This document shows positions 298 to 58,318 of a stretch of DNA of 64,000 nt, in pieces (the first letter of the stretch is position 1; every line of letters begins with the position of its first letter). The translations under genes were made by a program, and so were the position numbers. The notes under the pieces were generated by a model that did not search any database, was not told the DNA's origin, and worked only from the letters and a program-made list of their open reading frames with translations. The stretch comes from a virus (taxonomy: Duplodnaviria > Caudoviricetes), in the IMG/VR virus record IMGVR_UViG_3300033075_000639, positions 6,167 through 70,166 of that record, one strand, 5' to 3'.

Positions 298-672
298 TAA
301 AAATTTAACTCGATTAGCCATTTTACGATCTTCTGCATCACTTCCGCCGCCAATTTTTAGTTTGTGTTGCGGAGCTTTTCCACCTGAACGAAAATCACCT
401 TCTGCGACTCGCTGCTCAAGTTCAGGCAAAACATTTCTTGCGCACGACATAAGTGCATCTTTAAATTCTTCACATACGGCCATGAGTACATCGTCATCAT
501 CAGTATGTTCTTGAAAGTGTGTTTCGACTACGGGCATGATTGATTCTTCAACACAATTTATAAACCATTCATCGACACCGACATTATTTTTTACTTCAGT
601 CAATTTGTGTAGTTTTTTTACTTCAGTGGCAATTAGATTACGTAGTTGTTTTTGTGTAAGAATTTGTGACAT
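298..672 (-). CDS. Hypothetical protein with N-terminal QLxxLIxxE motif
   Basis: Likely start ATG 672 (MSQILTQKQLRNLIATEV). The upstream extension in the track contains an in-frame TTA (727-729). Ends TTT TTA TAA (standard end 295). Confidence 0.7.
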
Positions 673-673
673 A

Positions 674-1024
674 TTAATTTCCTTTTCCGGCGAGTGCTTC
701 TGACCATGAAGATTCAAGCACTTGACTAACTTTTGCAATTACACCTTCAGAATGTTTTTGAGCCAATGATTCAAGTTGATCATATGCCGCATCATCAAAT
801 TCGCGTGTTTCAGGATTGTACTTGTCTTTATGCTGCAACATTAGATTTGCTAGCAAAGAGCTACGATAAAATCGTTCAAGATCACCCAAAGCTTTACCGA
901 TGTTTTGTTTTTCTAGTGGTGATTCAACTGCTTTTTCATTTTGAAATGCAGGTGAAACACTCAACTCTTGAATAACGCTCTCACGAATAATAGAACGCAA
1001 TTGTTTGAGTGAAACTTTTTTCAT
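674..1024 (-). CDS. Hypothetical protein with N-terminal QLxxIIxE motif
   Basis: 116-aa ORF (MKKVSLKQLRSIIRESV), co-oriented and tightly packed, TAA stop. Confidence 0.75.
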   Translation of the reverse strand: MKKVSLKQLRSIIRESVIQELSVSPAFQNEKAVESPLEKQNIGKALGDLERFYRSSLLANLMLQHKDKYNPETREFDDAAYDQLESLAQKHSEGVIAKVSQVLESSWSEALAGKGN

Positions 1025-1413
1025 AAAAACCCTGCGGTTTCTTCAACTGCTAGCTTCATGTATTTTTCAATTACGGCTAGCAACTCAGTTTTCATATCAT
1101 TTGCATATTCATTGACTAGCATATGCATTGATTCGTCATCTTCAACATCAGGTGGTGATGCTTCGTATGCAATACTTCCAACAAGCGTGGTAAATTCCCC
1201 AACGACTGGGTCAAGTGCTTGTTCCATTAGTTCTCTGGCAGTCTCTTCAAAATTCCATGTGTGCATACCTGTCTGTTTGTCATCATCTTCGCCAGATGCA
1301 TCAAATGGACCAAACTTTTCTGTAAGCTTGGCTTTCTTCGAAAATTTTGAAACTTCTTCATTAACAAGTTTGTTTAGTAGTCGTGGTGTAATTTTGATTA
1401 TTTTGTTTTTCAT
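1024..1413 (-). CDS. Hypothetical acidic protein (ITPRLLNKLVNEE motif)
   Basis: Ends TTT TTA TGA; the TTA overlaps the next ATG as TTATG (standard end 1021). Confidence 0.75.
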
Positions 1414-1423
1414 AATTTTCTCT

Positions 1424-1873
1424 TAACTCGCTACGAATATCATCTGCACCAGTCGAGCCGGCAAAAATAACGGCTTCAGATCCCATACCCGCAGCCCATT
1501 CTTGAAGTGCACGCCTAATCGTTTCAAAGCAATCTCTTTGATGATCATCCATCATATCGTTATTTGTTAGTTCTTCATACAATTCAGAATATGTCACACG
1601 CGATGACGCGCCAGACATCGCGTGTTCATTCATTATTTTGACAATTATTCTTATTGCTGATTTGAAAAATTCATCCATGAATTGACTAGTTTGTTGATCA
1701 ATAGCCGATTCAAGACGCTCATTCAATACTTGATCGACTATTGACATGTCAACTGTCATTGGATCAGGTCCCTGTTCAAACAACGGCTTCTTTCTACGAG
1801 ATTCCATTATTGATTGAACTTCGTCCTGAATCATGTCATTAATAATTTTCGATTGTCGTGGCGTCAGTCTCAT
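1424..1873 (-). CDS. Hypothetical protein (MRLTPRQ...IQDEV)
   Basis: First in-frame TTA at 1424-1426, 10 nt before the next ATG. The standard-code reading runs to 1361, overlapping the next gene by 53 nt. Confidence 0.7.
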
Positions 1874-1898
1874 GAATAAAACTCCAATGATCTAAATA

Positions 1899-4376
1899 TA
1901 AAGAACATTTGCTATTGCCACAATCAAAGCACGTGACACAACCTTGTTCATATCTTAGATTAGATGTTGCGCCGCACTTTGGACATGATTTTACATGAAC
2001 TGGAACAGTTCCATCAGCAATGTAACTCTTTCCTAGAACACGAGCAATAACAGAAGAAAATGACGTAACATCACTATGCTTATCTTTTCTTAGTTGTTCA
2101 ACAAGATACTGAACTGGGACACCATGACGAAGTGCCAGTGACAACGTTCGTGTAAATGCGCCATAAACTGGATTGTCAAATAGATCAACGATATCCTTGA
2201 ACAGGAGTTCGGCCTCTCCTTCGACCTCAATTCGTAGATTGTATGTTGTTACACCTGATTTCTTGCCATTTTTTACAAGATAACCACGTGCCGCCTTTTT
2301 AGGCACTTCTACTTGTTCAGAAAGTCCAGCAAATATCTCATAAGGTCGCCCATCCATTAGTCCTACAAAAACAAGATATTGAACACCCTTTACAACTGCA
2401 CGATGAATATCACATTGCAGTTCTTTTGGACGCTTCGGTGCATGTGTTTCGATGATCAATTCACGTCCTTGCTCTGACGGCGTATCATCTTTCAACAGAA
2501 CACCATCACGTGAACCGTCACGATAAATTGTAACACCTTTGCAACCGGTTTCCCAACCGCGCATGTATACATCTTTTACGACGTCAACTGTTGTATCGCT
2601 TGGAATGTTCGTTGTGTTTGAAATTGCATGACAAATCCACTTCTGTGCAGCTGCTTGAACATCAATTTTCTTAACCCAGTTGATGTCATTGCTGGTTGCG
2701 CCCCAATATGGACTCTTCGTAGGATCTGTTTCGCCAGTTACGTCCATCCATTTTTTGAATCCTGGGTGATACACGGTATATTCTTGCCATTTGTCACCCA
2801 TGGCATCAACAAAATCCACACGTGCTTCTTGATCTCCAGGATTAATCTTTCTACGTCGTTTGTAGCTCGTAAGAAATGCAGGTTCACAACCGCTTGTGGT
2901 TTGTGTCAAAATTGAAACAGATCCTGCAGGTGCTGTTGTTGTCAATGCAATATTTCGTCGACCATAACGCCCATAATCTTCACGCATTTCATCATCACAT
3001 GACATTATTTGCTCAATAAATTCATGTCCACTTTCAAGAGAATAATCATACGCAGGAAATGGTCTACGATCACGAGCCATATCAATTGATTTACGATATG
3101 CATTAATCGCAAGATTCTTATAAATTTTTCCTGTCATCTCGACAGATTCGTCAGATCCGTACTTGATCCCCAAATATGCTAGCGTATCACCAAGCGCAGT
3201 AATACCAAGACCGGTACGTCGACCCAAAAGAGCAACACGTTGAATATCTTGCCATAGATTTAGTTCAACACTCTTAATGTCATCAGGTTCAGGATCTGAC
3301 TGAATTTTCTGTACTATCTTTTCAATAGCTTCAAGCTCAAGATCGATTAGATCATCCATCAATTGCTGCGCTTTTTGAACAACCGCAGCGTAACGTGGGA
3401 AATCAAATCTTGCATTTGATGTAAATGGATCAATAACAAAATTTGCAAGATTAACAAGCAGGAGTCGACACGAATCAAATGGGGAAAGACAGATTTCCCC
3501 ACACGGGTTCGTAGATGATGACAAAAAACTACGATAAATATCGGCAGGCCCGCGGCGGTGAACAGTATCCCAAAATAGCAAACCGGGTTCAGCAGATTCA
3601 TGTGCCGCAGAAATAATTTCATGCCACAGTTCTTTTGCTGAAACATATTCTGAAACGCTGTGTTTAACATCTTTTTCAACAGGAAAACGAAGTTGAACTG
3701 GTTCGTCGTTTTTAACAGCATTCATGAACTCATCTGTCAAACGAATTGAAATGTTCGCACCCGTGACTTTTTTCTTGTCTCGTTTGATGTTTATAAACGT
3801 TCGAATTTCTGGATGGTGTACAGAAATTGTCAACATTAGCGCACCGCGCCGACCACCCTGAGCAATACCACGAGTTGTTGTAGAAAATTGCTCCATGAAG
3901 ACGCCAATTCCGTCGGTTGTTCGAGCAGCATTTGCAGTTTCAACGCCCTTTGGTCGAATCGTAGAAATATCAAAACCAACACCACCACGACGCTTCATAA
4001 TTTGAGCGAGCTGTTCTGTTGTTCTGAAAATGCCACCGATTGAATCGTATGGTGGTTCGATAACAAAACAATTTGACAATGATTGATATTGAAATGGATT
4101 ACCAATTGCAGACATTGGTGAACCTTGTGGAACAACATCCCAATTTGCAAAAAGTTCATATATCTCATCATATGACATGGAGTTCGGATAATTTTGTTCA
4201 ATTCGAGCAAATTCCCTGGCCAACCTTTTATGCATGTCATCTGGTGAACTTTCATACCATTGACCACTTAGATCTTGTAGTGCATACTTAGAAGCAAATA
4301 CTTCGGCTGCAAGATCATCTCCATCAAAATAAACAAGTGATTCATCACGAACTTGTTGATACGTGAATTTCTTCAT
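1899..4376 (-). CDS. nrdJ: Class II (B12-dependent) ribonucleotide reductase with C-terminal Zn-ribbon
   Basis: Motifs SLSNCFV, GGVGFDIS, TNPCGEI and TTAPAGSVS; C-terminus CPKCG...CVTCFDCGNSKCS followed directly by TTA (1899-1901). Start ATG 4376 after GGAG, with an in-frame TTA immediately upstream of it. Confidence 0.92.
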
Positions 4377-6945: not shown

Positions 6946-7386
6946 TAACTTGCCCGTTGAACCAAACCCACCTGAGGCTCTATCTGTCTCACTCAACGGC
7001 TCTTCAGACCGCCAGAATGATGCTCGATATACTTGTGAAAATACCAATTGGGCTATTCTGTCGCCTTTTCTGATAATAAATGGTTCAGTACCGTGATTGA
7101 TTAGAATCACCTTAACTTCACCGCGATAATCACTGTCGACAGTTCCTGGTGAATTTAGGACGACAACCTTGTGTTTGAGTGCCATTCCGGATCTAGAGCG
7201 AACTTGACCTTCGAACCCAGTTGGGATTTCAAGATAAAGACCGGTGCCAACAGCAGTAACACCTCCGTTTGGAGGAACAAAAGAGTCATGTGATGCAGCA
7301 AGATCACAACCAGCAGATTCCGCTGTCTGATACGTCGGTTGTTTTTCAACGCCACAAAACTTAACAAGAATTCCTTCGAGCATCAT
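6946..7386 (-). CDS. dut: dUTPase (trimeric)
   Basis: SAGCDL, RSRSG, GTVDSDYRGE; motif 5 RASGGFGSTGK followed directly by TTA (6946-6948; standard end 6940). Confidence 0.95.
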
Positions 7387-8603
7387 AACTCATCTCCTTC
7401 ATCATCGTCTGTAGGTGATTCACCTTCGTCACTAACTGCTTGGCCTCCGTGTGTAACATATGCAGCGTCAATAACTTTGTCAAGCCACGGCTTGTAAAGA
7501 GGGTCTTTAATCATGTCACCAAATTCAGATTTGTAGAACTTTTTCTCAAGAAATATTTCACCTGTTTCAACATCTGAAACCTTAAATTCTTTCCAAGCAC
7601 CCGTTCCAGCAACTGATATATCAACTTTTGATACATTCCCTTTTGCATCTTTGTATTCTGTCAACACTTTATTTGCTGCACAATGTGCCCTGACAGTATC
7701 AAAAATAAATTCATGTTCAACAATTCCCTTCCCAAAAATAATATCAAAGAAGTGCTTTCGGAAAGGTGGCGCAACTTTATTCTTCTTGGTCGTCATAATA
7801 ACATGAATACCAACAATATTTCCTTTTGCATCTTTTACTTGAGTTCCGGACGTCAAACGAATTCGAAGTGATGCATGATAAGGAATGGCTTTCCCGCCAG
7901 GTGTGATATCAGGATCACCATGTGTTACACCAATAGCTGTTCTTAGTTGATTAAGACATAGCAACGTAACATTATTTTGACCAATCACACCAGTCAATTT
8001 TCGCATACCCTTACTGATTACACGAGCTTGCAAACCAACTGTATTTTGATCATAATCACCGTCAAGTTCAGCCTTGGGTGATGAAGCGGCTACTGAGTCC
8101 CAAATTACGAGAATAGGAACGCCCTTTGCAACAATCTGTTTCGCTTTAAGAACAGTACTTTCAATGATTGAAAATACTTCTTCTGTGCAGTGTGTATCGC
8201 AATAAACAAATTTCTTAGCAACGTTGATACCCATGTCACGCAACTTTTCTATTGGCGTCGCGTTTTCTGTATCGATATAGACAACTAGACCGCCTTGAGC
8301 TTGCGTTACTGCCGCAGCATGATATGCTAGATGAGACTTACCAATAGAAGGCGGGCCAGAAATTTCAATAACTCTTCCTTCTGGATATCCTCCACCCGCA
8401 GCATTTCTGATCGCATAATTAAGCTGGATTGATCCTGTGTCTAGCCAACGTTTAACGGTTGTGGGTGCTTCATCAACACCCAGATTATATGCAACTCTTT
8501 GACCAAATTCTTTGTTTAGATCACGAATAAGATTTTTCGTTAGTTCGTCAACATCTGACTCAGACTTTACAGTGTCATCAACGTCTTTTTTAGCTTTTAC
8601 CAT
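7386..8603 (-). CDS. recA: RecA/UvsX-like recombinase
   Basis: GRVIEISGPPSIGKS, YIDTENA, WDSVAA, LNQLR, TPGGKAIPYHAS. Ends GAG TTA TGA with a TTATG overlap onto dut. Confidence 0.92.
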
Positions 8604-8637
8604 TTTGTCCTCATAAAAATTTCACTATCTTAGAAAT

Positions 8638-8706: not shown

Positions 8707-9597
8707 TAACTCTTCGTCTGTTAGTTCTTTGAACGCATCATCAAGCGACATTTGCTTGGGAGTTGCCTTCGAAGAATCATCGTCTTCATCAACCGGTGGC
8801 TTCTTCTTTGAACGAGCCGGTTTGACATCTTCAACTACTGCGCCGCCTGAAGCCTGACTTCTTACGTCCTTGACTAGTGCATCAAGTGCATCAGCAGCAG
8901 GAGCGGCACCACGAGGAGTGCCTTCGTCGGCAGATGGCGTATCACCGCCACTTAGCCATGCGTTGAGGACGTTCTCAATTTCTTCCTTTGACTTCAAACG
9001 ATACATGTCGTCAATGTTCGGAACGCCTTCCAACCAAGCTTCCATCTGTTTTACATCGTCGCTTATTTTTGAAGTCTTCGCTCTAAAATCAACTGTGGTG
9101 TCTGCAAATTGCTTGCCGGGTTGCTGAGTAATAGTAACCTTAAGATCATGACCGTCAAGAGGGTCAAGAATATCTCCGCAATCTTCATCAACAAAAAATC
9201 CTAGTAGACGTTGGTACACAATTTTGCCAAACGACCAAACCATCACACCCTTTTCTTCTTCACCACGAACAATAACTGGCGTATATGCTCGCATCTTTGG
9301 TTGCAATTTCTTTGCTAGCTCACGATCTGCAGGCTTGCCAGAACTATACAATTTACGAATCAAATCGTCAATCGGATCAGGCTTGCCAAACTGTTTGGGC
9401 GTCAAAATTCCGGAATTTGTACCGATGTAATAAAACCATCGCTCAACAAATGGTTGACCATCAGTTACATTCTTCCAAGGCAAACAACGAATTTTATACT
9501 CACCTGGTCCTGGTTTCCAGAGTTGGACAGAAGACGTCTTCTTCGTCCCATTCAATTGCGCCATACGCTTACGAATCAAATCTAGATCTATAGCCAT
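8707..9597 (-). CDS. ssDNA-binding protein (T4 gp32-like)
   Basis: LWKP..GEY.IR.LP, DPIDD, WSFGK.VY, DILDP..G.DL and an acidic tail (DDAFKELTDEE). Ends GAG TTA TAA. Confidence 0.85.
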
Positions 9598-9696: not shown

Positions 9697-9903
9697 TAAT
9701 CTTCTCTTGTGTTGAACTTTGTTCGAAACAGCAGCACCTACTACTGCGCCCGTACCTGAAAATTCAACAACATCTTCCGCTTTACCGCTATCCTCTTGTT
9801 CACTCTCATTTTCTTGTGGCTCTAGAAGTTGATTTGGAACGCGAGCATCTCTGTCTGCTTCCAAAATCAACTTAACATATTGCACAAGAAGTTGTTTGTT
9901 CAC
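9697..9903 (-). CDS. Small hypothetical protein
   Basis: GTG start 5 nt after ATACTTA; ends AGA TTA TAA. Confidence 0.55.
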
Positions 9904-11802: not shown

Positions 11803-14790
11803 TAACTTATCTAGACCGGTAATCAATGATTTCAAATTACCAATAACAGATGGGGCAGCCTCATATTTTCCATATGCATCATAAAATGCCATAGTCAAAG
11901 ATGATTCAAATTTACCCGGTGAGAAATTATGATTAAGCCCAGATATACCGTAGATGTTATCAATTGTTGTTCCTGTGTTAAAATCGCAAAAAAACAATTG
12001 TGAATAATTTAGTAGTGGACAACCTATTGTTCTAATTGTCAGTGCTGCGGGTATTACTTTAAGTGGCAGTCCACCTTGACCGCCTCCCGCTGGCGTCGCT
12101 ATAACTTTTCTTCCAGAATTTAGCCCTAGAAGTTGCGCAGCCGTCAATTTTGCATCTTGTTTCGAAGAAATAGTAGCTTCAAGAACAGCTGATGCATTCA
12201 TACCATATATGATGCTCGGCACCATTTTCGAAACCATATTCTTAACTTGTTGATTATTAACGTCCGGTTCAATTCGCATATTTGTCAATTGAATTCCTGT
12301 ATTACCAGTCGAACTAATAACTTTCATGACATCTTTCATGACATTTTGTAGAACTTGTACAGTATTCTCTGTTTTCTTCTTGACCCATGGATCTGGGTCA
12401 ATTTCGACATAAGATGTTCCAGAAGATGAATCATGTCGTAGAATTTGCGCAGCTGTCTTATAAGGGTTAGCTGTCTTGTCATATATGTGAATACGAACAA
12501 TTTTCTTCAAATTTGAAAAGCCAGCGCTTTGTTGATCTTTTGAAGATGGATTTGTGCTAGGGCGTTTTCCAGGTTGTTCATAATATTGAAGAAGATCAAC
12601 TGCGTCTGTACCTTTAAATTTTTCATGTGTTGATTCAATATGAACTTCAATTTGTGGCATTTGAAATGTACCACGTTTACCGTTAATAGAAGACAACATC
12701 GATTCATACTGCTCACCTGTTTTTTTGTCTTTAGTCGTAGGATCTTTTTCTTTTGAATTCCATGGCTTAAAAACGCCGGCCGTACGAAAACCATATGGAA
12801 TTGCACGTGGATCATTTAGTTGTGCATCGACAGCAAGCTTTACAAATTCTTCAACTGCCATTGCTTCAGTTCCATTTGCTTCAATGACCTCTTTGTATTG
12901 ACGCATAAATACTGGTACGTCAATTGGGAATTCAGCAATATTTGTGCATGATGCTGGTCCACAACGATCATTCAACATATAAAACATGATCTGAAATTCA
13001 TCAATTGCCGGCAGTTGAATCAATGCATTTGTCATAAAAACACTAAACAACTTGCCAAAAGAACAGACTGTCTTTGACAGATTTTTCTCTTTTAGTTCTT
13101 TTATGAGTTCTTCACTAACTGAATCTTTTTGTGTATTGTATGCTTCAATATGTTTTAGAAGTGGATGATCATCATTTCCAGTTTCTGATTTCATTTTTTC
13201 ATTTTTTTCTTTGAAAATCAAAAATGGATCATATCCATTGCTAAGACTGCGAAATTTTTCATACGATATTGCTTTTGCTTGATTTGTAGCTGCTTCTTTG
13301 AACTTGAATTTATTTTCTTTTCCTTTGCCACCTTCTGGTGCATAAAGTTGTTCAAGTGCCTTTATAAGTGGATCAACATGACCTTTTTCGATTCGACCTG
13401 CAGCCTCGAGTGACTTACGTAGAGTAGCTATTGATTCTTTTATCTGTTTTGGATCTAGATCAGTAGGAAATTGACCGCTTTCTGCGGCGTCAAGAATCAT
13501 ATAGCCACGAATTTCTTTTGTCAAGCCGGGCGGATCAAGCTTGTATTTTTTACGCAAATCACCTATTTCTCTTGCAAGAGCTTCAATGTCTCTAGTAATA
13601 GACTTAAATGAATCTTTATCATCACTAATCTTCATGTCCCTGAGTTCAGAAACTGATTTTGTGAACAGTTCAAGTGTAATAGTAACTTGACCAACAGCAT
13701 CAAAAGAAAATCCTGCATTTTTAACGCCATATGCTTCTTTTGTAAGCATATTGTTATTAATGAAGTCTGCATAAGTTTCAGCAGATTTATCAGCAGAAGG
13801 TTCAAAGGGGTGTCTCCATCCATATGTCAACCAAACTGTTGTACGTGTATATGTTGTTGGTTGGATTAGATCGGCTAGTTCAGACAATCTGGAGCGATCA
13901 TGTAGCTTTATGACAGCAGTGGCTTTCTTAAATGACATGATTCCCTTGGTTGGGGCAACGTTGATTGCAACACTCTCTAGTGAAGCAAACGGTCGCGTTG
14001 GATCAAGAACGTCAACATATCTCGATCCTTCTTTTATTGGATTCATGTTCACTAGTGTTTGTGGCGACGTAAACATTTCCATGCCGGCAGATGATTTTGC
14101 ATTATCACCATCTGCCCATGCCCTTGACTTAAACATAACAGAATCAGGTGTTCCATCAGCAACTTCAACACCACCTAGCAAAAATTTCAACATACCTGCA
14201 GTCGTAAGTCTCTTTTCTGTTTCTTTGTCAAACCCACGATCAAATGCAAATTCTAGTTCAAGATATGGTACGCAACGCGACAACACAATTGATGGCAAAA
14301 AATTTAGAAATAGTTCTACTTTTTGTGCATCACGAACAAGAGGGCTCACAAATGGTGAATTAACAACGGTGATACTCATATCACGCTCGCCAAAATCTGA
14401 TTTTTTCAAACCCGATATTTGTTCAAAAGCTATGTTATCAGAAGCTTCTTTTGCCTTACCGTCAAGATACATGTAAGGATACTTTACGTCCGGTATTGGA
14501 CCTGATTTTAGCGAATAAAAATTGACAATTGAATCAAAGTCTTTTTTATCACCAACAACTGTTCCATCTGGGTTAGCTGATGCAGACGTTCGATATTCGT
14601 TTAGTTTAGAATGGATCATTGCAGAATTTGAAATTCCACCATTGGAATATTCCAGCAACAATTTTTGCAACAATCGTGACAAACTATTTTCTTTTGCAGG
14701 ATCACCAATACCAATTTTTTGTGCGATCAGGTAATCAGCAGGTGTCACCATTCTAAAAATTGAATCAAGTTTCGAAAAATCAGCGGCCAT
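11803..14790 (-). CDS. Large baseplate hub-like virion protein
   Basis: Located next to the LysM-like and tape measure genes; VWLTYGW and TIGCPLL..SQ.FF.DF.TGTTIDNIYGI..L.H.F..GKF.S motifs resemble hub proteins (family assignment by inference). Start ATG 14790; ends AAG TTA (standard end 11731 overlaps the next gene). Confidence 0.6.
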
Positions 14791-14794: not shown

Positions 14795-15088
14795 TAATCC
14801 CGTAATTGCAGCAATATCGTTAAGTTCAGGTATGTTAATAATCGTCCCAGGTGGAACTTGAAGACCCCATCCGATATCACTCGCCGCAGCAAGAACCCAC
14901 CAGTATCTTGAATCGCCATAAATACTACCCGCCAACGTATCCAATCTTTCAACACCCCTAACAACAAGTTGTTTGGTTTTGATACTGCCATTTGCAATTG
15001 CTTTACGAATTGAAACAACTGCTTCGGCAGTTCCATATTGGCGTCCATAATCGATTATTGCAGTTCTAGCGTAACGACTAAATGCCAT
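14795..15088 (-). CDS. LysM/tail-X-like baseplate wedge protein
   Basis: ERLDTLAGSIYGDSRYWWVLAAASDIGWGLQVPPGTII.IP. Ends GGA TTA, 4 nt before the next ATG (standard end 14780). Confidence 0.75.
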
Positions 15089-29555: not shown

Positions 29556-29557
29556 GT

Positions 29558-40696: not shown

Positions 40697-41175
40697 AATA
40701 CTTTCTGTCGATCAAATACTGCACCCATAGATGGTGCACCCATATCATCATAAAGATTATATGTAGCAACTACAGTTGAATTATCGTCCTTGTAAAAAAT
40801 CATCTGATTCGCAACAATCTTCCAACGACCATATTGAATATCATACAGTTGACCAATTGTTCCGGACATTTGTGTAACTTTTGTATCGATTGAATCGATT
40901 TTTGGATTATTTTCTTCTACGTTATATTGTTCGCTGGCATATGAGGCTGTGACAAATGCTGATCCTGTATCCCATAGAATTTGTCCTCGAAAATTGTCTG
41001 GAAACGAAATATATGCAGCGTAGATTCCCAACCCGGTTTGATAAACTCCAGTTGTAGTTCGTGCAGAAACAATCGATCCTGCCGTATCTAGAACTGTGTA
41101 TCCAACTCCCGATGAACCCGTAGCATATGCTCGAGACCTACCAAAATTGACATTTCGAAGTTGCTGCAATGTCAT
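40696..41175 (-). CDS. Hypothetical tail/fibre-associated protein
   Basis: Ends GAVFDRQKV then TTA (40696-40698), overlapping the next ATG. The standard reading runs to 40582, deep inside the next gene. Confidence 0.7.
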
Positions 41176-43229
41176 AATTCAAAATATCCATCAATAAATA
41201 CAGTGCCACGAAATTGCAATGATGCTGTTGCAGCGCCTGACCAACACTTATATCCTACGTGCAAAACCGTTTGTGACAAACATGTTATTGGTTGTTTGGG
41301 ATAAAATTCAACTGCTTCACCAGTAAAAACAGCACCGATCGCCGCGGCGGCGGCAACTGTCTGCAACCCAGACAATGGAATTCGAATTGCATTTGTTGCA
41401 GATGAAAGGTTCGCTGATGATGCCCCATGAACTACAAACCACTGCAAATTTGTTCTAGTACCTACAGCAGCGCCAAGAACAACAGGCAACTGAATTCGAA
41501 TTCCTGTCAAGTTAAAAACATATGGATTCGGAATTGTAAATCCAAATATGGTCAACATTGTTTCCGCACCTGCAGTTGCGTTAACAAGATATTCACCACC
41601 AAGTGTTGTATAAGGCGCTGTTGTATTTGATGGTGTTTGTGCTGCAGGTGCGGCCGCATTTGCAAGTTGACAATTTTGTGCGTATGTTGTTGGATTAACA
41701 GAACCATATCGATTGACGCCAGACATCTGATCTGCCCATGGTTTATTATGTGTCGTATCAAGCATATGAACAATATGTTCTGATATCAACAACTTAGCAG
41801 CTGTACCACCGCCAGTGGCATCAACATACAATCGAGCATATGATGGCAAATGTGACAACAAAAACAAATTTTGATTTGTTGATAGTGCAGGAATAATCAT
41901 ATCAACAAGTGGTGCCGCAGTCGTTGCAGACGACATTACAAAACGTACATAATCATCATGAATTGTAACATCATACATGTAATATGCAGATGTAGAAATA
42001 ACGCCTTGTGCAAGAACTTGCACAACAGTTTCAGTTCCGCCGACAGCAACCACTGCAGCCAATGTTCCATCAACTCTCCATCTGAAACAACAACCATTAC
42101 TAATATTTGCAGTAGCACTATTAATACTACTAAATCCCATCTCTGATACAATGTGTTGACCAGCTGTATTACTAGTCAAACGAGCTTTAAATCTCAAACT
42201 TATAGGTGTTCGAGGCAATTTCTGAAATTGCTTAATTGTTGTAATTATGCTATATGAACTAGCTGTTGTTAGTGAACCATTGTTCAACGTAATAATACAT
42301 GATGATTGTGCAATGGTTTGTGAATTAGTTAGTTGTCGAATCCATGGATTAATTGTTGATCCTTCAATTGCATCTTGAAACATTATCATTTCAGACGTTG
42401 TTCGAAGACTATTTCCGTCAACACGCAACTGTCGAATAATTCCACCACCAACAGACTGTTCAACTCCGCCAACCATTGCAGTAGTAGGAGGTGATACAGA
42501 CCCAGACATAACAGCGTAAAGAAGTGATGGATCAAGTGCCATCGACCCCCTTACTGTACAGTTTGCAGTACCAGAAGTATATGCTGAAACACGTATTCTA
42601 ACTTGACCGGTACCAGCATTAAGAATAATTGCTTGAGTTGTTGCAGTGTTACTAGCAGTATATTGAATTGCATTCTTCTTTTGTCCCGTAACAGCATCAT
42701 CAAAATACGTTCCAACCCAAGTCGTGCCGCCGTCAACAGACACTTCTGCAACCAAAACGCCAATTAGCGTACCAGCAGCAAGTTGCATTGACACACCATT
42801 CAAACCTGCCATGTTCAATGTAACTGCAGCGTTTAGAGCACCAAGCGCGCCGGTTGAAACATTATCCGGAACTGAAGATGAAACAATAGTGTTTGGTGAA
42901 ACTGAAACAACAAGTGCTGGATCTGTTGATAGCGCAGCCGTTGATGCCGCTTTCCCTCGAAGGGAAATCATGTTTGTTCCGTCACTTACACCCATTAGCA
43001 AAGCGGAAGTGGGAACAGCGGCGCCAGTTGATCCCTGAGAGGCTAGCGATACAGTGCCAGAAATTAGTTGGGCGCCCTGTGTATACACAGAAATTGACCC
43101 AGAAACCAACTGAGCGCCTTGCGTGAAGACGCCAATTGAACCTGACACTTGAACTGCTAGCGGATTTGTATTGACGCCAATTGGATTCCCATTGACGTCA
43201 AATTGTGTTATTGATGGTGTTAGAGGCAT
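41175..43229 (-). CDS. Tail fibre / receptor-binding-like protein
   Basis: 685 aa, Ser/Gly/Thr/Ala-rich, beta-rich C-terminal region; N-terminus shared with the adjacent gene. Ends GAA TTA TGA. Confidence 0.65.
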
Positions 43230-43249: not shown

Positions 43250-44263
43250 TAACGTTAGTTCTGTAACCCGCGCAGAACCGTTTGCAGTATCCCAAATACC
43301 ATCGATGATCCCAGTATATCCAAATGGAACTTCGTAGTAACCACGGGCTGTAATTTGTGCCGAGAAGCTTGTTGATGATGCTGTTGCACCAAGTTTAATG
43401 CTTAGCGTTTTGTTTCCATCGTTAAAGATCGTTGCACCCTTGCGTGCTGAGTTAGCCGCAAGAATTGTTACGTTCGTTGCTGATGCCGCAACTGAAGATT
43501 GCGTTCCCGTTGTTGATGCAGCAGGTGTAACAGAAACTGCACCAGCAGTATCAGTTCGTAGAGTTCTAACAAATCCTGTAACGTCAGTTCCTGCAACAAT
43601 GACAGGAGCAGCGTTTGCTGCTGTTGATCCTGACAACGTCGTGCCGACAACAATTTGTCGACCTGATGAATCCATCAACATTCCCCGAACGAATCCTGAT
43701 ACGTCTGCGCCAGCCATCAATACAGGATTTGCAGTAGCTGTCGTTCCGGAAGCATTATTACCAACAACAGTAATAGTCCCGGGGATCGTAGTGTTAACAT
43801 TTAGTCGACCGTTAAAATCAGTCGAAAGTGCTCGAGTAAGATTTCCACCATCAACGCCACCCATCAACACAGGTGCGAATGTTGCAGCCGAACCGGAAGC
43901 AATAACACCTGCAACAGCTGCTGGACTTTCAAGTGTAACAGATCCTGAAACAAATAGTTTTCCGGACGTATCTGTTCTAAGACCTCTAAGAATTCCATTA
44001 GTGTCTGTACCACCTACAAGGGTTGGAAAACCGAGAGCAGTAGAACCAGATTGAACGGTGTTCAAAATTGAAATAGTGCCTGAAATTAGTTGCGCACCTT
44101 GAGTATAAACTGACACAGAACCAGAAATTAGCTGAGCTCCATGTGTATACACGTTCGTACCCGCCAAAGAGCCGGATACTTGAACTGCTAGTGGATTGGT
44201 GTTAACACCAATTGAATTTCCGTTAACGTCAATAAGAATTGCTGCTGGATTTGTAATCGTCAT
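43250..44263 (-). CDS. Tail fibre-like protein with internal repeats
   Basis: Four approximate repeats of SGS.A...PV..GG.D..G..R.L.TD..G. Ends ACG TTA TAG. Confidence 0.65.
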
Positions 44264-45865: not shown

Positions 45866-46468
45866 TAAAATATTAAACTTTCCAAGAACAATAGGTTCAC
45901 CGACTATTGGTTTAGACATTCTCCATTGAGGATTAGACTTGACAAATTCATCAACTGCAATCTTTACACCACACTTCTTACTCTTTTTACGTTTAGTTGC
46001 AGTTTTTACACCAGAATATTCTGGGCGCTCTGAATACCACATATCTTTCTCCGACCATTTACCATCATAATCGTCTATAACAATAATAGAATGATCATAT
46101 GTAATGTCATTCAACGTATTTAGTTCTTTACTTACTGTATGATAGTTGTGATCACCATCGATCAAAATCAAATCAAATTTCAATCCTTCTTTTTGAAAAA
46201 CTGGCAATACTTCTAGACTTGAATTTTCAACTATTGATATAGATTGTTTGTCTTTAACGGGTGTTAGTCCTTCAAGGGTCATAAGAACATGTTGTTGAAG
46301 TAGTACGTCCAATCCAATCAATCTAAAATTTTCTTTATTCGAAATCAAGTGTGCCGCAATAGGAATAAATGTAACACCTCGATCTATTCCAATTTCTAGA
46401 ACTGATGGTGCATGTGGAAGATCACTTATAAACTTCTTCATTAGCGGAATGTAACCATGATATGCCAT
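45866..46468 (-). CDS. Class I SAM-dependent methyltransferase
   Basis: VLEIGIDRG.T, FDLILIDGDH.Y, IIVIDDY. Ends ATT TTA, 2 nt before the endolysin ATG (standard end 45860). Confidence 0.8.
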
Positions 46469-46737
46469 TATGAAATCCTACGTAGATAAATTTTCTTTTC
46501 GTTGTATTGATTAACATAAATTACGTGATATTTCTCACTACGTTTAACAACTCGATATCGAGCCAAAATAATCCTACGAAGGAGACGTTTTGTTGAATTT
46601 TTTTCACCCTTCTCAGTCGTAGTAATAACTGTTATAATCGTTCTAATTTCTTTTGTGTAAATTCCCTCACCTTGATTCAAAAAATAAACTCTCGTATCGG
46701 TTACTCGTTCTTCCGGTTTGTCGGTGAGATTTGTCAT
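46468..46737 (-). CDS. Hypothetical protein
   Basis: 89-aa ORF coupled to neighbours on both sides (TAATG at its end). Confidence 0.5.
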   Translation of the reverse strand: MTNLTDKPEERVTDTRVYFLNQGEGIYTKEIRTIITVITTTEKGEKNSTKRLLRRIILARYRVVKRSEKYHVIYVNQYNEKKIYLRRIS

Positions 46738-46961
46738 AACATTCCTGATATCAATGCTTGAACTGCAGTTTCTACACGTGCTCTGAGATCAGCTGGAAGC
46801 GCAGACAACAGGACATATGCCTCTGATTTTATCGGTGCAGCGTAGGTGCCGCCTGTTGTATACATATCAGCATTCTGAACAGCAACACGTAGAACAAGTG
46901 GAGCAGGTCCCTTTTTGTCTGCCGCGATTGGTTTATACAAATCAACTTTTTGAAATTCCAT
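46737..46961 (-). CDS. Hypothetical protein
   Basis: Ends ATG TTA TGA with a TTATG overlap. Confidence 0.6.
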
Positions 46962-46963: not shown

Positions 46964-47143
46964 TAATCCTTTCAAGATCTGTCGGCCTTCATTTAGGGCT
47001 GCATTAGAAACATTCAAACGTTCCATAAGTTCTGAATAAGTTTTACGCAATGTCGCATGAAAACCAACAAAAGGTTCGGGCTCATTCAATTTACGTTCAA
47101 TATCTCTAATTTGTTCTGCTAGTAGTTCAACTGATGCTGACAT
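46964..47143 (-). CDS. Small coiled-coil hypothetical protein
   Basis: Ends GGA TTA TAA. Confidence 0.55.
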
Positions 47144-48018: not shown

Positions 48019-48026
48019 ACAAATTC

Positions 48027-48449: not shown

Positions 48450-48941
48450 TAACTTCTTATGTTTTCCACGCCACTTTCTATTTTTAGGTAGTTGTGGTGG
48501 AGGTGGTGCTGGACGATGTTTACGTGGATACGATTGAGTAGGATCGTCCTTAAGGTCCTCCTCATCAAGTGTCAGAAAATTTGGAAGCGACGCTAGTTTA
48601 GATTCAGCAACAGTTACTTCAGTTTCCTTTACGTCTGACTTATCTTTTGACCATTCAACTCCTCCAAAACTAACCGTGTTAACAGGTGCAGTCTTTAGCG
48701 ATTCAATCTTGGCTTTTTGATCATTTTCCCACTCATTAAAAAGTCTATCAGTAATTTCTGTATGTGTGGCATCGCGCTTGTCGCTTTCTTCTTTACGAAG
48801 AAGTGCAGAAATAAGACATGAATGCATACGATCAACAACTATACGTACATTCATTCGATCTTGTATGTTAACCTGACCGTCAAGTTTAACCAATGTTGAA
48901 TACAGTGCCATAAATTCTGGTGGTGTTAGATTCAAACGCAT
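48450..48941 (-). CDS. Hypothetical protein, basic Pro-rich C-terminus
   Basis: Likely start ATG 48941; ends AAG AAG TTA (standard end 48435). Confidence 0.6.
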
Positions 48942-49468
48942 TTGTATACCTTTCCACATTCTAGCGTATCAATCCAATCACTTGGAAACTTAGACACAGT
49001 GTATATGTCCCAATAATTATGATTATCAATCACATTACTAATCTTAGGTATATCCCTCTTTGATAGGACATACAACTTTTTACCGCTGCGCTTAATATAT
49101 TTCACATGTGAATTCAATTCATACGATATATTGTTAGGTTTAAAAATTTCGATCAAATCTAGATGATTTGATGTTTTCTCAAACTTAAACTTTCCATCGT
49201 AGTATTTCACTGTCATTCGAGGAAGATCACACAGTTGAGAAATGGAAATGATATTATCATAACCCGGTTGTACCTCGTCGTTCGTATCAATATCTTCGAC
49301 TTTCTTATCACATTCATCATCTGACAAAATGCTGTCATTAAGTTGACGTTGCACATCACGAACAGCAACATCGAGCTCAACATTATCAGAAAGCGAGTTT
49401 TTGATAAGTTGCTCATAATGAAACAACACTTTAACAAGAAACAATGCAGTAGATTTATCGATTTTCAT
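48932..49468 (-). CDS. Hypothetical protein
   Basis: 178-aa ORF, co-oriented. Confidence 0.55.
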   Translation of the reverse strand: MKIDKSTALFLVKVLFHYEQLIKNSLSDNVELDVAVRDVQRQLNDSILSDDECDKKVEDIDTNDEVQPGYDNIISISQLCDLPRMTVKYYDGKFKFEKTSNHLDLIEIFKPNNISYELNSHVKYIKRSGKKLYVLSKRDIPKISNVIDNHNYWDIYTVSKFPSDWIDTLECGKVYKCV

Positions 49469-49545: not shown

Positions 49546-49830
49546 TAACCAGGTCTTGCCAGCAACTGCGTAATGCTTCTGTAGCAAATTGTAGAGCGTA
49601 CGTGCCTCCGAACCCGAGAGGGTAATCGTGGTTCCCTCAGGAAGATCAACAAACAATCGAGTGCGATTCACATTCTTTGCGGTTGAAGCCGCGAAGTTCG
49701 TGGTATACGCATCCCGACGAGCAGTTTCCGTACGTAGCTTACCCACTCGATCAGTTCGGGTACGAATAATCGCATTGCGGTTCGTAGAATCAGAGCGAAA
49801 CTTCTTCTTGGACATTGTGGTCTTCTTCAT
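49546..49830 (-). CDS. Small basic hypothetical protein
   Basis: Likely start ATG 49830. Ends AGKTW TTA; the standard-code tail after it contains two more in-frame TTA. Confidence 0.55.
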
Positions 49831-49881
49831 TTTGTTTTTTCTTTCATTTAGGAAGCTCTTTACTTGTCTTCCGTAATATGA

Positions 49882-49911
49882 ACTGTACACCCGAGATCAA
49901 GAAGTGTACAA
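49882..49911 (-). promoter_or_regulatory. Putative sigma70-type early promoter TTGTAC-N18-TACAGT
   Basis: AT-rich UP-like tract immediately upstream; same layout as 10530-10559. Confidence 0.35.
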
Positions 49912-50441: not shown

Positions 50442-50912
50442 TAATGCGTTGTTACCAGCTAGCGTCATAGAACCTGATCCGCCAGTAATACACCAGTGAA
50501 GACCGTCAGACACTAGAATAATAGAACCACCTGCATTCATTTTAACAGTGCCACCGCCCAAAGCAGATGGAGGAGCACCGCCCATAGAACCCGACATCTT
50601 AACAAATAGTGCACGACCATTTGTTGGTGCTGATCCTGACAATAGCCAGTCAAATGAACCATTATCAGTTGTTCCTGCAAAAATCAATGATGCACCTGGG
50701 AATGACGCTGGTGATGGGACAGAGCCCGTAAAATAGCCTGCGCCAGAAGAACCGGTACAAGGAACATAGAAAAAACCAGCAGTTGAAATTGTAATTGAAC
50801 CTGAGCTAGACAATGTCTGTGCTGAATATGTGTGTTGCTTGGCCTGTGCTGTACCTGCAACAATCATATCTGATGAACCATCATCTACAAAACCACCACG
50901 TGTATATGCCAT
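50442..50912 (-). CDS. SGS-rich virion structural protein
   Basis: GGAG RBS; ends GCA TTA TAA. Confidence 0.65.
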
Positions 50913-52511: not shown

Positions 52512-52539
52512 CAGTCATTTTATGTTGTTAAACAACTCG

Positions 52540-54435
52540 TAAGATTACATTCATATCTAGGACTGTTACAGTTCCGAAGAAGTCTGTACGGACCATCTTC
52601 TTACCGTATCGGGTCATCACACCCTTTCGAGGAGTGAAATCTTCAGGTGCGAAGATCGTAGGAGTCACGATAAGCGGAACGTATGGACTGTATACGTATC
52701 CCGTCTCTAGGTAAGATCCGCCCTTGTACCCAACAAGAATCTTGTTGCGTGGGAAGTATGGATCCTTGTAAACAGTGAATCGGTTTGAAACAGTTCCGAT
52801 CGCCTCTGCACCAATGGTGAATGGCGTTGAAACTTGTCCTTCGCCGTCCATTGAGAACTTTGGCTTGTAGAGAACAGAGCTCTCTAGGATCGTGCAAACA
52901 TCTGGGCCAGTAACCATGAAGTTAGCTGATCCGCGTAGCGTCTTACGGTGGATGGTGTTTGCCACATCGATAACAGTCTCGATTAGGGTCTCATACCATT
53001 CACGAACAGTTCCTGTGAACTGTGGTCCGATGCTCAAGCTTGAAGCAAGCGTCTGACGATCACCGGTGACCTTGTTGACAAAACGTCCTGGTGAACGGCT
53101 CCAGAAGTAGTTAGCTCCGTTTGCCTGTGTCACTAGATCGTTTAGAATCTCGCGGTCGATTTCTAGAGCAATCTGCTCTGAAAGAATGCTGGTCAACTCA
53201 ACTTCTGCGTCCATTGAGTGATATGCATTCAAGTCCTGTGCAAGCTCTGGTGACCAACGAGCACGTAGCTTTCGTGTCACTGCAGTGATTGCAATTGCCT
53301 CGATCTTGATATCAATCTCTGGAATTGCAGGCGATGGGGTTGATCCAAAGTCTGTTTCGAAAGAAGGAACCGTTAGGGTTGCTCCTGATCCGCTGTCGAC
53401 GGTTAGACCGTCCGTGATTGCCATTGAAACCTTGGTTACCGCAGTACCCATGGTTGGAACTGAACCACCGTTAGATAGTCGTAGAACCATCTGGATGTGC
53501 GTTCCGTTTAGAGGATTCAATGTAAACACTGAACCGGTCCAATCGCCACGCTTGTTTAGACGACGTAGGTTGTAAACTCCCGTTCCTGACTGGTAGCTTG
53601 AGCCCCATGCAGTTACGCTGTTTGCAGCCGTGAAGCCGAAGACAGAGATTTGCTCTGGTGCTAGGAAGTCACCCTTTGGAATACCGGCCTGAATTGCAGC
53701 AACCGTTAGGTGCAAGAATGCAACGTCAAGTGTACCATCGCTTAGGTCGACTTCAATCTGTGGATCGAAGTTCAACATTCTTGCGTTGGTTCCGGAAAAG
53801 TCCGTTAGTGCAGCAACGGTTCCAGCAACAGTCCATGCATTTGATGCACCGGTCCAAGCACCGCAATCTGCGTTCGATCCAGAGATCGTTAGAGATGCCG
53901 AGTGAACCTTTGAATAACCAACGTTAACGAGGTCATACATACCACCAGCAACTTGTGAACCTGACTGAACTCCCTTACCAACTGGGTTGTTATAGATCGA
54001 CTGTCCACGCTGATATGTGTCGTAGGTTGCTGAGTTGCTTAGACCCAAACCTGCGTCACCACCAACGTTTGATCCGTAGGTGTAATCTAGGTAGAAGATT
54101 AGACCGGATGGTAGTGACATTGGCTGAATTGAAACGAGTTCATTTGCAACCAAACCACCGAAGACTCTACGAACGATTGGAAATGCAATGTTCGAGAAAC
54201 CCTGAATCTGTCCGGAAGAGGTAACTGCGCCGCCTCCAGTCGACAATGAACCTGCTTCCTTTAGAACCTGTGCAGCCTGGTTCTCAAGTAGCTGGGACAT
54301 CATCTCACGCTTATTACCTTCAAGGCCGCGAAGCAAGCCGGTTCGGCTCCACTTCTCGGTGAGGCGAGCTCGCTCAGCACCAACGTGCTTTTCGCGAATT
54401 CCTTGTGCTAGTTGATCTAGTGAAAAAAACTTCAT
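52540..54435 (-). CDS. Major capsid protein (T4 gp23-like)
   Basis: KW..TGLL.GL, PIVRRVF..L.ANELVS.QPM..PSGLIFYLD, RKLRARWSPELAQDL.AYHS.DAE.EL, EIDREI, GYVYSPYVPL, P.KG.MTRYG. Start ATG 54435 after GGAG; ends ATC TTA (standard end 52528). Confidence 0.96.
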
Positions 54436-54491
54436 TTTATTCTCCAATATCTTTCTTTGTTAATCAGTAACGTTAATTCAATGTTCATGCA

Positions 54492-56405: not shown

Positions 56406-56464
56406 TTATTGTTTCCCTATGATCTTGAAGTTAAGTATCATACTAAATTGTAAAATATTACGAA

Positions 56465-57010
56465 TCAAACACCAGACTTGCCTGGGACGGTATCCGAACC
56501 AAGTGTATTTGCATCATAAAGCTTTGTCCCAGCGTCTGAAGGGTTCTTTGTATTGTCATCAGTACCCGGAACAATATTTGGTTTAATTTCAGCAGCAGAT
56601 ATATGTGGATCAACAGACTTATCAATTCCATCTGTCTTACCCGGTCCGGGTGATGTAATATCTGGTACATATGAGTTAGCAGGATCGCCTGGTTTTGTCC
56701 ATGCACCTTCTGATCCGGCAACCTTGTTAGGAATTGAAACAGTTGCAGTTGCTCCGGTATAACTTAGATCAACTCCCGTTGGAAAGTGACCTGGGTCACC
56801 AGCAGTTATTCCATTATTTGCAGCTGCTCGAAGAATTGCATTACCTCGAGCAACAGCACTGTCAACATTTTTTGGGTCAATGGCTTTTGCTTGATCCATG
56901 CCCTGAAATGGTGGCGTAACACTTGAATCACCAGCATAACACTTTTCTAGAAAGCTCTTTCTTGGTGAAGCAGGTGCATTGAATGTTGTATATTTACCTT
57001 TTCCTGACAT
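56465..57010 (-). CDS. Hypothetical head-module protein
   Basis: 181 aa, Pro/Gly/Asp-rich. Confidence 0.6.
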   Translation of the reverse strand: MSGKGKYTTFNAPASPRKSFLEKCYAGDSSVTPPFQGMDQAKAIDPKNVDSAVARGNAILRAAANNGITAGDPGHFPTGVDLSYTGATATVSIPNKVAGSEGAWTKPGDPANSYVPDITSPGPGKTDGIDKSVDPHISAAEIKPNIVPGTDDNTKNPSDAGTKLYDANTLGSDTVPGKSGV

Positions 57011-57028
57011 AGTATCATCCTCTTCTTA

Positions 57029-57277
57029 TAAAGCCTTACGAATTGTCTTAAGAACACGAGTTCGTGTTTCGACAATTTTTGCAAGACGAGCACGAAGTCT
57101 AGACTCTTCGACTTTAAGTGCTTTTGCATAATCAATCTTTTTTTCTAGTGCATCAGCATATTCATCAGCATCTGTTTCTTCGGTGTCTTTTGCACGATCT
57201 TCAACATCGTCCATATCACCAAACTTTGAAACTTCTTCTTCGATAATTTGCTTAAGCAATTTTGATGTCAATTTCAT
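57029..57277 (-). CDS. Small protein (MKLTSKLLKQIIEEEV motif)
   Basis: Start ATG 57277 after GGAG; the track's upstream extension has an in-frame TTA. Ends GCT TTA TAA. Confidence 0.7.
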
Positions 57278-57332
57278 TTTTGCACGTTCTCCTGTTATAT
57301 GTGCTACGTTTAAATAGGTTGTCGACAAACAA

Positions 57333-57818
57333 TTACGATGATTTCTTACTTGGGGGTGTTGCAAATGCAAGATCAGCCCATTTAGATGTCATTTGTGTTC
57401 CAAATATTTCTTCAGGTGTTCCATTTATTTGTTCTTGTTGTTGAACACGTGATGCTGAACCACGTTCTGACGAAGATTCATTCGCAATTTGTTCTTGCAA
57501 TGTTGTCATTGCAGTGTCTGCAAGAATATCTGCCATTACAGAATTTCCACCAGCAGTCTGTCTAACTGCTTCAGCAAGCGCACCTGACGGGCCCCTATTT
57601 TGACTTTGACCGTGAACTGTTGCAGGTAGGTCTAGTGGTGAAATTCTTCTTTTTTGTTGCTGTTGATTAACTTGTTGACGGCGAACTTCATGAACTGGCA
57701 GTGTTACACCCATAGATTGTGACGATCCTGAACCTAGACCTTCTTGCAACAACTCTACGAGACATTCTTTTACTAGGGCCTTTAGTTGAAGCCTAGACAA
57801 TTTATTTCCTGTTGACAT
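57333..57818 (-). CDS. Hypothetical protein (QLKALVKE motif)
   Basis: 161-aa ORF in the head module. Confidence 0.7.
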   Translation of the reverse strand: MSTGNKLSRLQLKALVKECLVELLQEGLGSGSSQSMGVTLPVHEVRRQQVNQQQQKRRISPLDLPATVHGQSQNRGPSGALAEAVRQTAGGNSVMADILADTAMTTLQEQIANESSSERGSASRVQQQEQINGTPEEIFGTQMTSKWADLAFATPPSKKSS

Positions 57819-57820
57819 AA

Positions 57821-58318
57821 TAACCCTATAGCAATTTTTGAAAGATTTTTTAGTACCGTTCTGTGTTCAACAGGTGCAGCACGATCAATCAACAGAATAC
57901 CGTCTAGATGATCGATCTCGTGTTGTATAATTCGAGCTGTCAGACCAGAATACAAACCGTAACGTTGTGTGCCACTTATGTCTGAATATTCAACTTCAAT
58001 TTCTGAATTTCGACATATGTTCAATTGAACATTAGGCATTGACAAACAGCCCTCGACTTTTGTTTCGATGTCATTTGATGACCACATAATTTTTGGATTG
58101 ATCATTACAATCAATGAATGTGCAGACTGACCAGAGGTTGAATCAACAACTATCAATCTTTCATTTATTCCAATTTGTGGTGCAGCAAGTCCTACACCGT
58201 TATTTGTATACATCGTATCAATCATAGCTGCTACTGTAGCGCGTAGAGAATGATCAAAATTCTCTACGGCTATAGATTTTGCACGCAAAATATCTGATGG
58301 ATACGTTATGATATGCAT
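57821..58318 (-). CDS. def: Peptide deformylase
   Basis: GVGLAAPQIG, EGCLS, QHEIDHLDG. Start via TGATG coupling at 58318; ends GGG TTA TTA, the second TTA overlapping the next ATG (standard end 57782). Confidence 0.92.

Follow-up and report, generated by a model that had tools for sequence, protein, structure and literature searches.

We have analyzed the use of the codon TTA (UUA) in a 64-kb stretch of DNA, hereafter called the window, from a 70,166-bp virus record of IMG/VR (the whole record is denoted G000). Judging from where this codon is found in the genes, UUA probably ends translation in this phage beside UAA, UGA, and UAG, is not decoded as leucine, and closes approximately 40% of the genes. 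The source is an uncultured T4-like jumbo phage of ∼300 kb, of which the contig is about one-fifth; the completeness of the record was estimated by CheckV as 21%, and it is therefore a fragment of a genome of this size. The GC content of the window is 40%, and nearly all of its genes are found on the minus strand.

The original prediction, made from the letters of the window alone, was that in-frame TTA is missing from the interior of the genes and common in the other two frames. Open reading frames (ORFs) of at least 150 amino acids were called with translation table 11, and 30 codons were cut from both ends. In this trimmed set, the in-frame count of TTA was 11, against 504 and 193 for the two remaining frames; CTA and TTG occurred in frame 378 and 434 times, respectively. 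No sense codon besides TTA was near zero; the next lowest was CGG at 15. The 11 leftover in-frame TTA codons are all located in 5′-extensions or 3′-tails, and the sites at 727, 4377, and 18480 lie in spurious 5′-extensions of ORFs, as had been described. The minus-strand table-11 ORFs of at least 100 amino acids contain 63 TTA among 19,817 codons, together with 513 TTG, 464 CTT, and 454 CTA, and in the credible genes of this set TTA is always within 82 codons of the start or within 40 codons of the end of the ORF.

When the genes were modeled with four stop codons, TTA was found at none of the 21,865 codons of the gene bodies and at 8 of the 224 codons of the tails (Fisher p = 1e-16), where a tail consists of the codons from TTA to the next ordinary stop. 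Relatives of similar GC content would lead one to expect 440–730 TTA in 21,865 codons. The rate in the tails (3.6%) matches that of unconstrained sequence, and the DNA between TTA and the next ordinary stop thus appears to behave as noncoding. A codon-level alignment with sixteen relatives that use TTA as leucine paired 572 of their in-frame TTA codons with codons of the window, and not one of the latter is TTA. Leucine is encoded at 377 of these window codons, by CTT (127), CTA (111), TTG (104), CTG (19), and CTC (16).

The gene models for the whole contig end with TTA in 28 of 70 cases, with TAA in 22, with TGA in 18, and with TAG in 2. All of the 28 sites that had been proposed as TTA gene ends carry this triplet, and in 26 cases a modeled gene has its first stop-like codon there; those at 9697 and 29331 close only small, uncorroborated ORFs of 68 and 85 amino acids. 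The ordinary stop codons are still in use, as previously suggested, and their positions align with the stops of relatives. Within conserved genes of the window, no in-frame TAG or TGA was found that would need read-through; the table-11 ORFs tile the window and are open for up to 1,379 amino acids. The 28 sites and the other features with coordinates are collected in Table 1.

For comparison, we drew on 140 related IMG/VR loci in the neighborhood of the capsid and RecA genes. Most of these relatives use TTA freely as leucine; in the locus L005 (GC 36%), for instance, TTA accounts for 119 of the 322 leucine codons. The nearest standard-code relative is G003, a 309-kb genome (91% complete, GC 56%) with synteny across the entire window and protein identities of 50–89%. 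It contains very few TTA leucine codons, and one of these lies inside the conserved FEN motif IPGVKG-L-GFKT, by which G003 was ruled out as a TTA-ending phage.

The TTA codons in the window are found where homologues stop. In 48 of the 48 TTA-using relatives, TAA, TAG, or TGA comes directly after the capsid protein C-terminus ...DMN(V/I)I; the end codon at this position is TTA in the window, in L001, in L003, and in G006, each with unrelated sequence downstream. The stops of the TTA-using relatives fall exactly on the window TTA for gene 46737 (16/16), gene 14795 (14/15), and the ribonucleotide reductase (6/8). For 21 of the TTA-ending window genes, the orthologue in G003 reaches the C-terminus. 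The ordinary stop of G003 falls exactly on the window TTA in 14 of these 21 and within one codon in 5 more, and the corresponding exact matches for control window genes with ordinary stops were 15 of 31. If TTA were leucine and the next ordinary stop the end of the gene, then the offsets to the G003 stops would be +4 to +38 codons. Among orthologue ends in the window, G001, and G006, TTA is exchanged with TGA or TAA in both directions. An alignment with homologues had been proposed as a check, and the TTA columns do coincide with their stops.

The structure of the genes also favors TTA as a stop. Re-calling the genes in this way reduced the overlaps of at least 8 nucleotides from 10 to 4, as had been anticipated, and the resulting ORFs tile the strand neatly, with TTATG junctions at 1024, 7386, 40696, 41175, and 46737 that parallel TAATG. 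With TTA as a stop, the coding density is increased in G000, G001, and G006 and decreased in G003. The reading of UUA as a fourth stop is thus supported by the stop positions, by the interchange of TTA with ordinary stops, and by the smaller number of overlaps.

Table 1. Coordinates of the TTA triplets proposed to close genes, followed by other features. Window positions are given unless another record is named; "as Leu" denotes the consequence of decoding TTA as leucine up to the next ordinary stop.
Position	Strand	Gene or feature	Observations
TTA 298..300	-	139-aa ORF 298..717	TAA directly after; no homologue for mapping of the end
TTA 1024..1026	-	129-aa ORF 1024..1413	TTATGA; A of TTA begins ATG of next gene
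TTA 1424..1426	-	149-aa ORF 1424..1873	as Leu, 53-nt overlap with next gene
TTA 1899..1901	-	ribonucleotide reductase large subunit 1899..4376 (Pfam)	same position: G003 TGA, G006 TAA; 6/8 TTA-using relatives stop
TTA 6946..6948	-	dUTPase/dCTP-deaminase-like gene 6946..7386 (Pfam)	G001, G006 TTA; G003 TGA at +1 codon; 11/20 relatives stop here
TTA 7386..7388	-	RecA/UvsX-like gene 7386..8603 (Pfam)	TTATGA overlaps next start; variable C-terminus, 5/19 relatives stop here
TTA 8707..8709	-	gp32-like single-stranded DNA-binding protein (SSB) 8707..9597	TAA next; G003 TAA here; 11/22 relatives here, 6 at +1 codon
TTA 9697..9699	-	68-aa ORF 9697..9903, uncorroborated	no homologue found
TTA 11803..11805	-	995-aa protein 11803..14790	window ...LDK-TTA vs G003 ...LDK-TGA; G001 TAA
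TTA 14795..14797	-	97-aa protein 14795..15088	14/15 TTA-using relatives stop here; G003 TGA, G001 TGA, G006 TAA
TTA 22679..22681	-	NUDIX hydrolase 22679..23395 (Pfam)	same position: G003 TGA, G001 TTA
TTA 27009..27011	-	conserved 163-aa protein 27009..27500	same position: G003 TAA, G001 TGA, G006 TGA; as Leu, +17 residues
TTA 29331..29333	-	doubtful 85-aa ORF 29331..29588	same triplet is TAA stop of + strand endonuclease gene 27612..29333
TTA 29558..29560	-	100-aa protein 29558..29860	G003, G001 TGA one codon earlier
TTA 29879..29881	-	conserved 1021-aa protein 29879..32944	G003 TGA at -1, G006 TTA at -2
TTA 39744..39746	+	129-aa ORF 39357..39746	2/2 relatives and G001 (TAA) stop here; as Leu, +38 codons
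TTA 40696..40698	-	159-aa protein 40696..41175	TTATG with next start; G001 TTA, G006 TGA here, G003 TGA at +1; as Leu, 115-nt overlap
TTA 41175..41177	-	684-aa protein 41175..43229	TTATGA; no C-terminal homologue
TTA 43250..43252	-	337-aa protein 43250..44263	TAG next; same position: G003 TGA, G001 TTA
TTA 45866..45868	-	200-aa protein 45866..46468	same position: G003 TAG
TTA 46737..46739	-	74-aa protein 46737..46961	TTATGA; 16/16 TTA-using relatives stop at TTA, not at next TGA; G003, G001 TGA
TTA 46964..46966	-	59-aa protein 46964..47143	TAA next; 2/2 relatives and G003 (TGA) stop here
TTA 48450..48452	-	169-aa protein 48450..48959	G003 homologue only 30% identical, stop 5 codons later
TTA 49546..49548	-	114-aa protein 49546..49890	G003 TAA here; 10/23 relatives stop here; 26-codon tail with 3 more TTA
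TTA 50442..50444	-	156-aa protein 50442..50912	TAA next; same position: G001 TGA
TTA 52540..52542	-	gp23-like major capsid protein 52540..54447	...DMNVI-TTA; TAA, TAG, or TGA here in 48/48 TTA-using relatives
TTA 57029..57031	-	82-aa protein 57029..57277	TAA next; most relatives stop one codon later
TTA 57821..57823	-	peptide deformylase 57821..58321 (Pfam)	TTA-TTATG before next start; same position: G003 TAA
25226-26881	-	homing endonuclease	
27612-29333	+	homing endonuclease	
47264-47986	-	homing endonuclease	
51006-52430	-	homing endonuclease	
58318-59025	-	homing endonuclease	
48024-48391	-	one-piece transfer-messenger RNA (tmRNA)	Rfam RF00023, 51.9 bits; tag frame 48299-48258
61013-64000	-	portal gene	HNH-endonuclease-containing insert
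G003 C1:228801-228949, 288775-288850, 265523-265618		suppressor tRNAs and odd tRNA-like gene	
L265:7418-7489 (G006)		amber suppressor tRNA	anticodon CUA
L081:1453-2125	-	short RF1-type release factor	G003 C1:260.5-261.2 kb; no domain 1, motif PPT, GGQ intact, inside tRNA array

The triplet at 39744–39746 ends two convergent genes, since it is read as TTA by the plus-strand ORF 39357..39746 and as TAA by the minus-strand gene 39744..40325.

The same use of TTA was found in other phages. TTA closes 38 of 104 genes in G001 (104 kb, GC 45%) and 65 of 201 genes in G006 (187 kb, GC 43%). Further TTA-free loci are L003, L112, L113, L115, L158, L161/L163 (GC 35%), L358, L361, and L377. The diverged TTA-free relatives come from other metagenomes, with 55–86% protein identity and GC contents of 35–51%. 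The numbers of TTA and TAA gene ends are 28 and 22 in G000, 38 and 15 in G001, and 65 and 36 in G006. In this contig an ordinary stop directly follows TTA in 9 of 27 genes, compared with 3 of 42 after ordinary stops. There is no such excess in G001 (1/36) or G006 (8/63), and a general need of TTA for back-up stops is therefore ruled out. Because TTA outnumbers TAA in all three phages and G001 and G006 have no excess of back-up stops, efficient termination can be argued. The tails are 0–4 codons long in 17 of 27 genes. We infer that, in this AT-rich genome, mutation turned the last sense codon of some genes into TTA, a change that would be harmless if TTA is a stop; in gene 57029, TTA probably replaced the last sense codon in this way, with the relatives stopping one codon later. 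A frameshift onto an ordinary stop was considered and ruled out, since just 7 of the 27 TTA codons are followed by A or G and the base upstream is not constant. As a separate observation, few genes of the TTA-ending phages end with TAG (2/70, 6/104, and 6/201).

Some of the results weigh against termination at UUA. No release-factor or ArfB-type domain (PF00472) was found in G000, G001, G002, G006, or the others searched, and no tRNA gene was found on the window contig. Among ten TTA-free records searched for tRNAs, all partial genomes, only G006 contained any, with 12 genes and none for leucine. A host of similar GC content would normally supply tRNA-Leu(UAA), which reads UUA. A short RF1-type release factor (Table 1) is found only in TTA-using relatives: it is encoded at 80 further IMG/VR loci, all of which use TTA as leucine, and it cannot therefore be linked to the trait. 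The back-up stops in excess in this contig alone could also mean leaky termination, although it is more likely that they reflect TTA mutations tolerated at the last codon.

G016 was examined as a possible TTA-ending carrier of the short RF1-type gene and was rejected, since its whole contig uses TTA as leucine. Full reading of this gene requires a prfB-like +1 frameshift at AGGGGT-CTT-TGA-G, although UGA is not expected to be recognized by a factor of the RF1 type.

G003 has 49 tRNA genes, with leucine anticodons CAG, UAG, and CAA, not UAA, and TTA is still read as leucine in this genome. Its suppressor tRNAs are two amber (CUA) and one ochre (UUA, 76 nucleotides). It also contains a 96-nucleotide tRNA-like gene to which ARAGORN assigns the four-base anticodon GTTC. 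The window encodes a tmRNA, which was missed by ARAGORN and has a tag, ANDNSVAPLALVA, that ends in TGA. The tmRNA of G003 is near-identical (tag ANDNGVAPLALAA) and thus this RNA is not specific to the trait. No gene common to the TTA-ending contigs yet absent from G003 appears to be translational; such genes were limited to an endolysin, homing endonucleases, and small ORFs of unknown function.

In an alternative, UUA is a vacant, or "hungry", codon that neither a tRNA nor a release factor reads, so that the ribosome stalls and the peptide is let go through codon-independent rescue, for instance by an ArfB-type hydrolase or by drop-off of the peptidyl-tRNA. The proteins would still end at TTA, but the code would have an unassigned codon and no fourth stop. 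The three TTA-ending contigs without a release-factor gene, the G003 tRNA set without tRNA-Leu(UAA), the vacant TTA state of L113, the rescue equipment carried by the phage in the form of tmRNA, and the back-up stops of this contig, which would fit slow release, are all compatible with this proposal. Slow rescue is nevertheless hard to square with a codon that closes 32–40% of the genes, the major capsid protein included, and that outnumbers TAA. Back-up stops are not in excess in G001 and G006, the tmRNA tag would send the products to degradation, G003 has the same tmRNA and reads TTA as leucine, and no ArfB-type GGQ domain was found. We regard a vacant codon as improbable. An even smaller chance is given to the proposal that TTA is leucine but avoided, the tRNA being scarce, regulated (bldA-like), or attacked by an anticodon nuclease, and the terminal TTA codons being tolerated stop-loss tails. 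Avoidance alone would explain the empty coding frame, many of the tails are short, and G003 shows that very low TTA with a sense meaning exists in the family. It does not predict the enrichment of TTA at 28 of 70 gene ends, exactly on the stop positions of homologues. Tails of 17–38 codons would run into the next gene, the tails differ between the window, L001, and L003 and hold TTA at the noncoding rate, and ending the capsid gene on a codon with a scarce tRNA would carry a cost.

TTA is also one substitution from TAA, and errors of assembly or base calling could in principle have made one into the other, or the record might not be natural. Such errors cannot erase several hundred in-frame leucine TTA codons. 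Contigs of this phage from JGI 3300033074 and from the Logan assemblies of SRR32380200 and SRR32380201 are 99.96–100% identical over the parts compared, so that four assemblies agree, and the diverged relatives from other metagenomes have the same pattern. An artefact can be given almost no weight.

For UUA as a genuine stop codon, the most likely model, by analogy with organelles, combines an altered release factor with a lost tRNA. No UUA-reading tRNA would be active in the infected cell, and a class-I release factor, of the phage or of the host, with broadened recognition of the second base would free the peptide at UUA. The model rests on the organellar cases in which Ser of the SPF motif of RF2 is substituted, or mtRF1a is remodeled, together with loss of the cognate tRNA. 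The change probably arose by codon capture in a lineage where TTA was already rare or absent. Changes from TAA to TTA and mutations of the last codon to TTA would then have become neutral, and such terminal TTA codons would have built up while the genome drifted to 40% GC. This origin is suggested because G003 has few TTA and no tRNA-Leu(UAA) among its 49 tRNAs and because L113 is without in-frame TTA. L113 (IMGVR_UViG_3300031772_000310, GC 51%), which is placed as sister to the window in the RecA tree, lacks in-frame TTA throughout 13 large genes, gene ends included, against 58 off frame; it may be a vacant-codon intermediate. Together, L113 and G003 look like the stages expected for codon capture.

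The number of origins was addressed with two trees. In a quick RecA tree, the TTA-free state is found in at least four separately supported places, and the capsid tree is compatible with a single origin for the nearest group of the window. RecA may have recombined, so that its tree is not decisive on this point. The spread of the trait among close relatives is patchy, and this, together with the large tRNA sets of the family, fits a phage-borne determinant. A bolder version of the termination model, which we consider unlikely, is that the phage imposes the four-stop code on a standard-code host by disabling tRNA-Leu(UAA) and by supplying or retargeting UUA release. UUA-rich messages of the host and of rival phages would then be cut short, and the TTA-free genes of the phage itself would be read fully. 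If this were true, then the imposed code would be a weapon for host shut-off and exclusion.

UUA is a stop codon in labyrinthulean (Thraustochytrium) mitochondria (NCBI table 23) and in peDinoflagellate plastids, and UUA and UUG are stops in the mitochondria of Marsupiomonadales and Pseudoscourfieldia (PMC12574857; PMC6821328). Termination at UUA in organelles has been linked to replacement of Ser204 in the SPF motif of RF2 or to a remodeled mtRF1a, plus loss of the cognate tRNA (PMC12574857). The phage resembles these organelles in that the same codon has gone from leucine to stop, is absent inside genes, falls on the stops of homologues, and accounts for a large share of the genes, with the ordinary stops kept. 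It differs in that theirs are small genomes with nuclear-encoded factors, whereas this is a bacterial virus of ∼300 kb with a patchy distribution of the trait among close relatives. Stop codons are recoded in crAss-like, Lak, and other large phages, with TAG read as Gln (code 15) or TGA as Trp (code 4) (bioRxiv 10.1101/2021.08.26.457843; PMC10607447). As in those phages, the code of the phage may differ from that of its host, and large tRNA sets, together with suppressor tRNAs and genes for release factors, are found in relatives. Those phages, however, turn a stop into a sense codon with a suppressor tRNA, whereas the change proposed here is from sense to stop, which requires that a tRNA function be lost and a release activity be present, and no read-through of in-frame TAG or TGA is needed in the window.

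Unassigned codons are known in bacteria, such as CGG in Mycoplasma capricolum and AGA/AUA in Micrococcus luteus, and are explained by the Osawa–Jukes codon capture. There the codon was lost together with its tRNA, and G003 and L113 look like such intermediates; in those bacteria the codon is merely absent, whereas here TTA is back in quantity at the gene ends. In Streptomyces, whose genomes have more than 70% GC, TTA is a rare, regulated sense codon read by the bldA tRNA-Leu(UAA) and is not found at gene ends. Near absence of TTA from most genes is shared with that case, in which decoding hangs on one tRNA, but here the GC content is 40% and TTA is on stop positions. Some human mitochondrial genes end with AGA or AGG, for which a −1 frameshift at a hungry codon and recognition by mtRF1 have been proposed. 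There too, reading frames are closed by sense codons for which no cognate tRNA exists, but frameshifting cannot explain the sites described here, and far more genes are affected. The mtRF1 paralogue is mentioned in PMC12574857.

Published alternative codes of phages and bacteria go from stop to sense or swap one amino acid for another, and changes from sense to stop are known only in a few mitochondria and plastids. Our full-text literature searches found UUA and other sense-to-stop changes only for these organelles and, for phages, only stop-to-sense recoding, in agreement with what the original prediction had said of described phages. If UUA is a stop codon here, then the bacterial translation apparatus can gain a fourth stop, and it may be asked which factor reads U at the second position. 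Standard gene callers would misannotate approximately 40% of the genes through false C-terminal tails, overlaps, and wrong starts, and code-inference tools that seek only amino-acid meanings would overlook a change of this kind. The family would then be a natural series of code change, in which TTA is used, rare, vacant, or a stop. It would also suggest a new axis of phage–host conflict, and engineered genetic firewalls would have a precedent in nature.

The window contains replication and nucleotide genes for ribonucleotide reductase, a DnaB-like helicase, a 5′-3′ exonuclease, RecA/UvsX, a gp32-like SSB, a family-A polymerase, and a NUDIX hydrolase. The virion genes encode a gp23-type major capsid protein, a gp13-like neck protein, a gp21-like prohead protease, and a portal protein with an inserted endonuclease, and peptide deformylase and several homing endonucleases are encoded as well. 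Among cultured phages, the highest identity to the capsid protein is 42%, the nearest being Flavobacterium and Microcystis phages; the capsid protein of an uncultured 484-kb phage reaches 52%. A search of the genome collection for a clue to the host matched only a 1.8-kb contig of a metagenome-assembled genome. Extension beyond the contig ends by exact-protein look-ups joined nothing; all of the assemblies end alike, and no relatives were found for the last protein of G006.

Of the five homing endonucleases, three belong to the PHROG 3339/559 type and have a Mom-like region; the other two are GIY-YIG. All five are without internal TTA and end with TGA or TAA, never TTA, in numbers too small for significance. 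The portal gene is broken by its HNH-containing insert, with the PHROG portal match split in two and additional matches to HNH families; this insert had been labeled an atypical intein in the original prediction. The four assemblies of the phage, which are independent of each other, all break at the same two points, window position 64000 (the contig end) and position 1 of G000. One of these shared breaks is inside the region of the portal gene and its endonuclease insert, which suggests a repeat, a polymorphic mobile insert, or strain variation.

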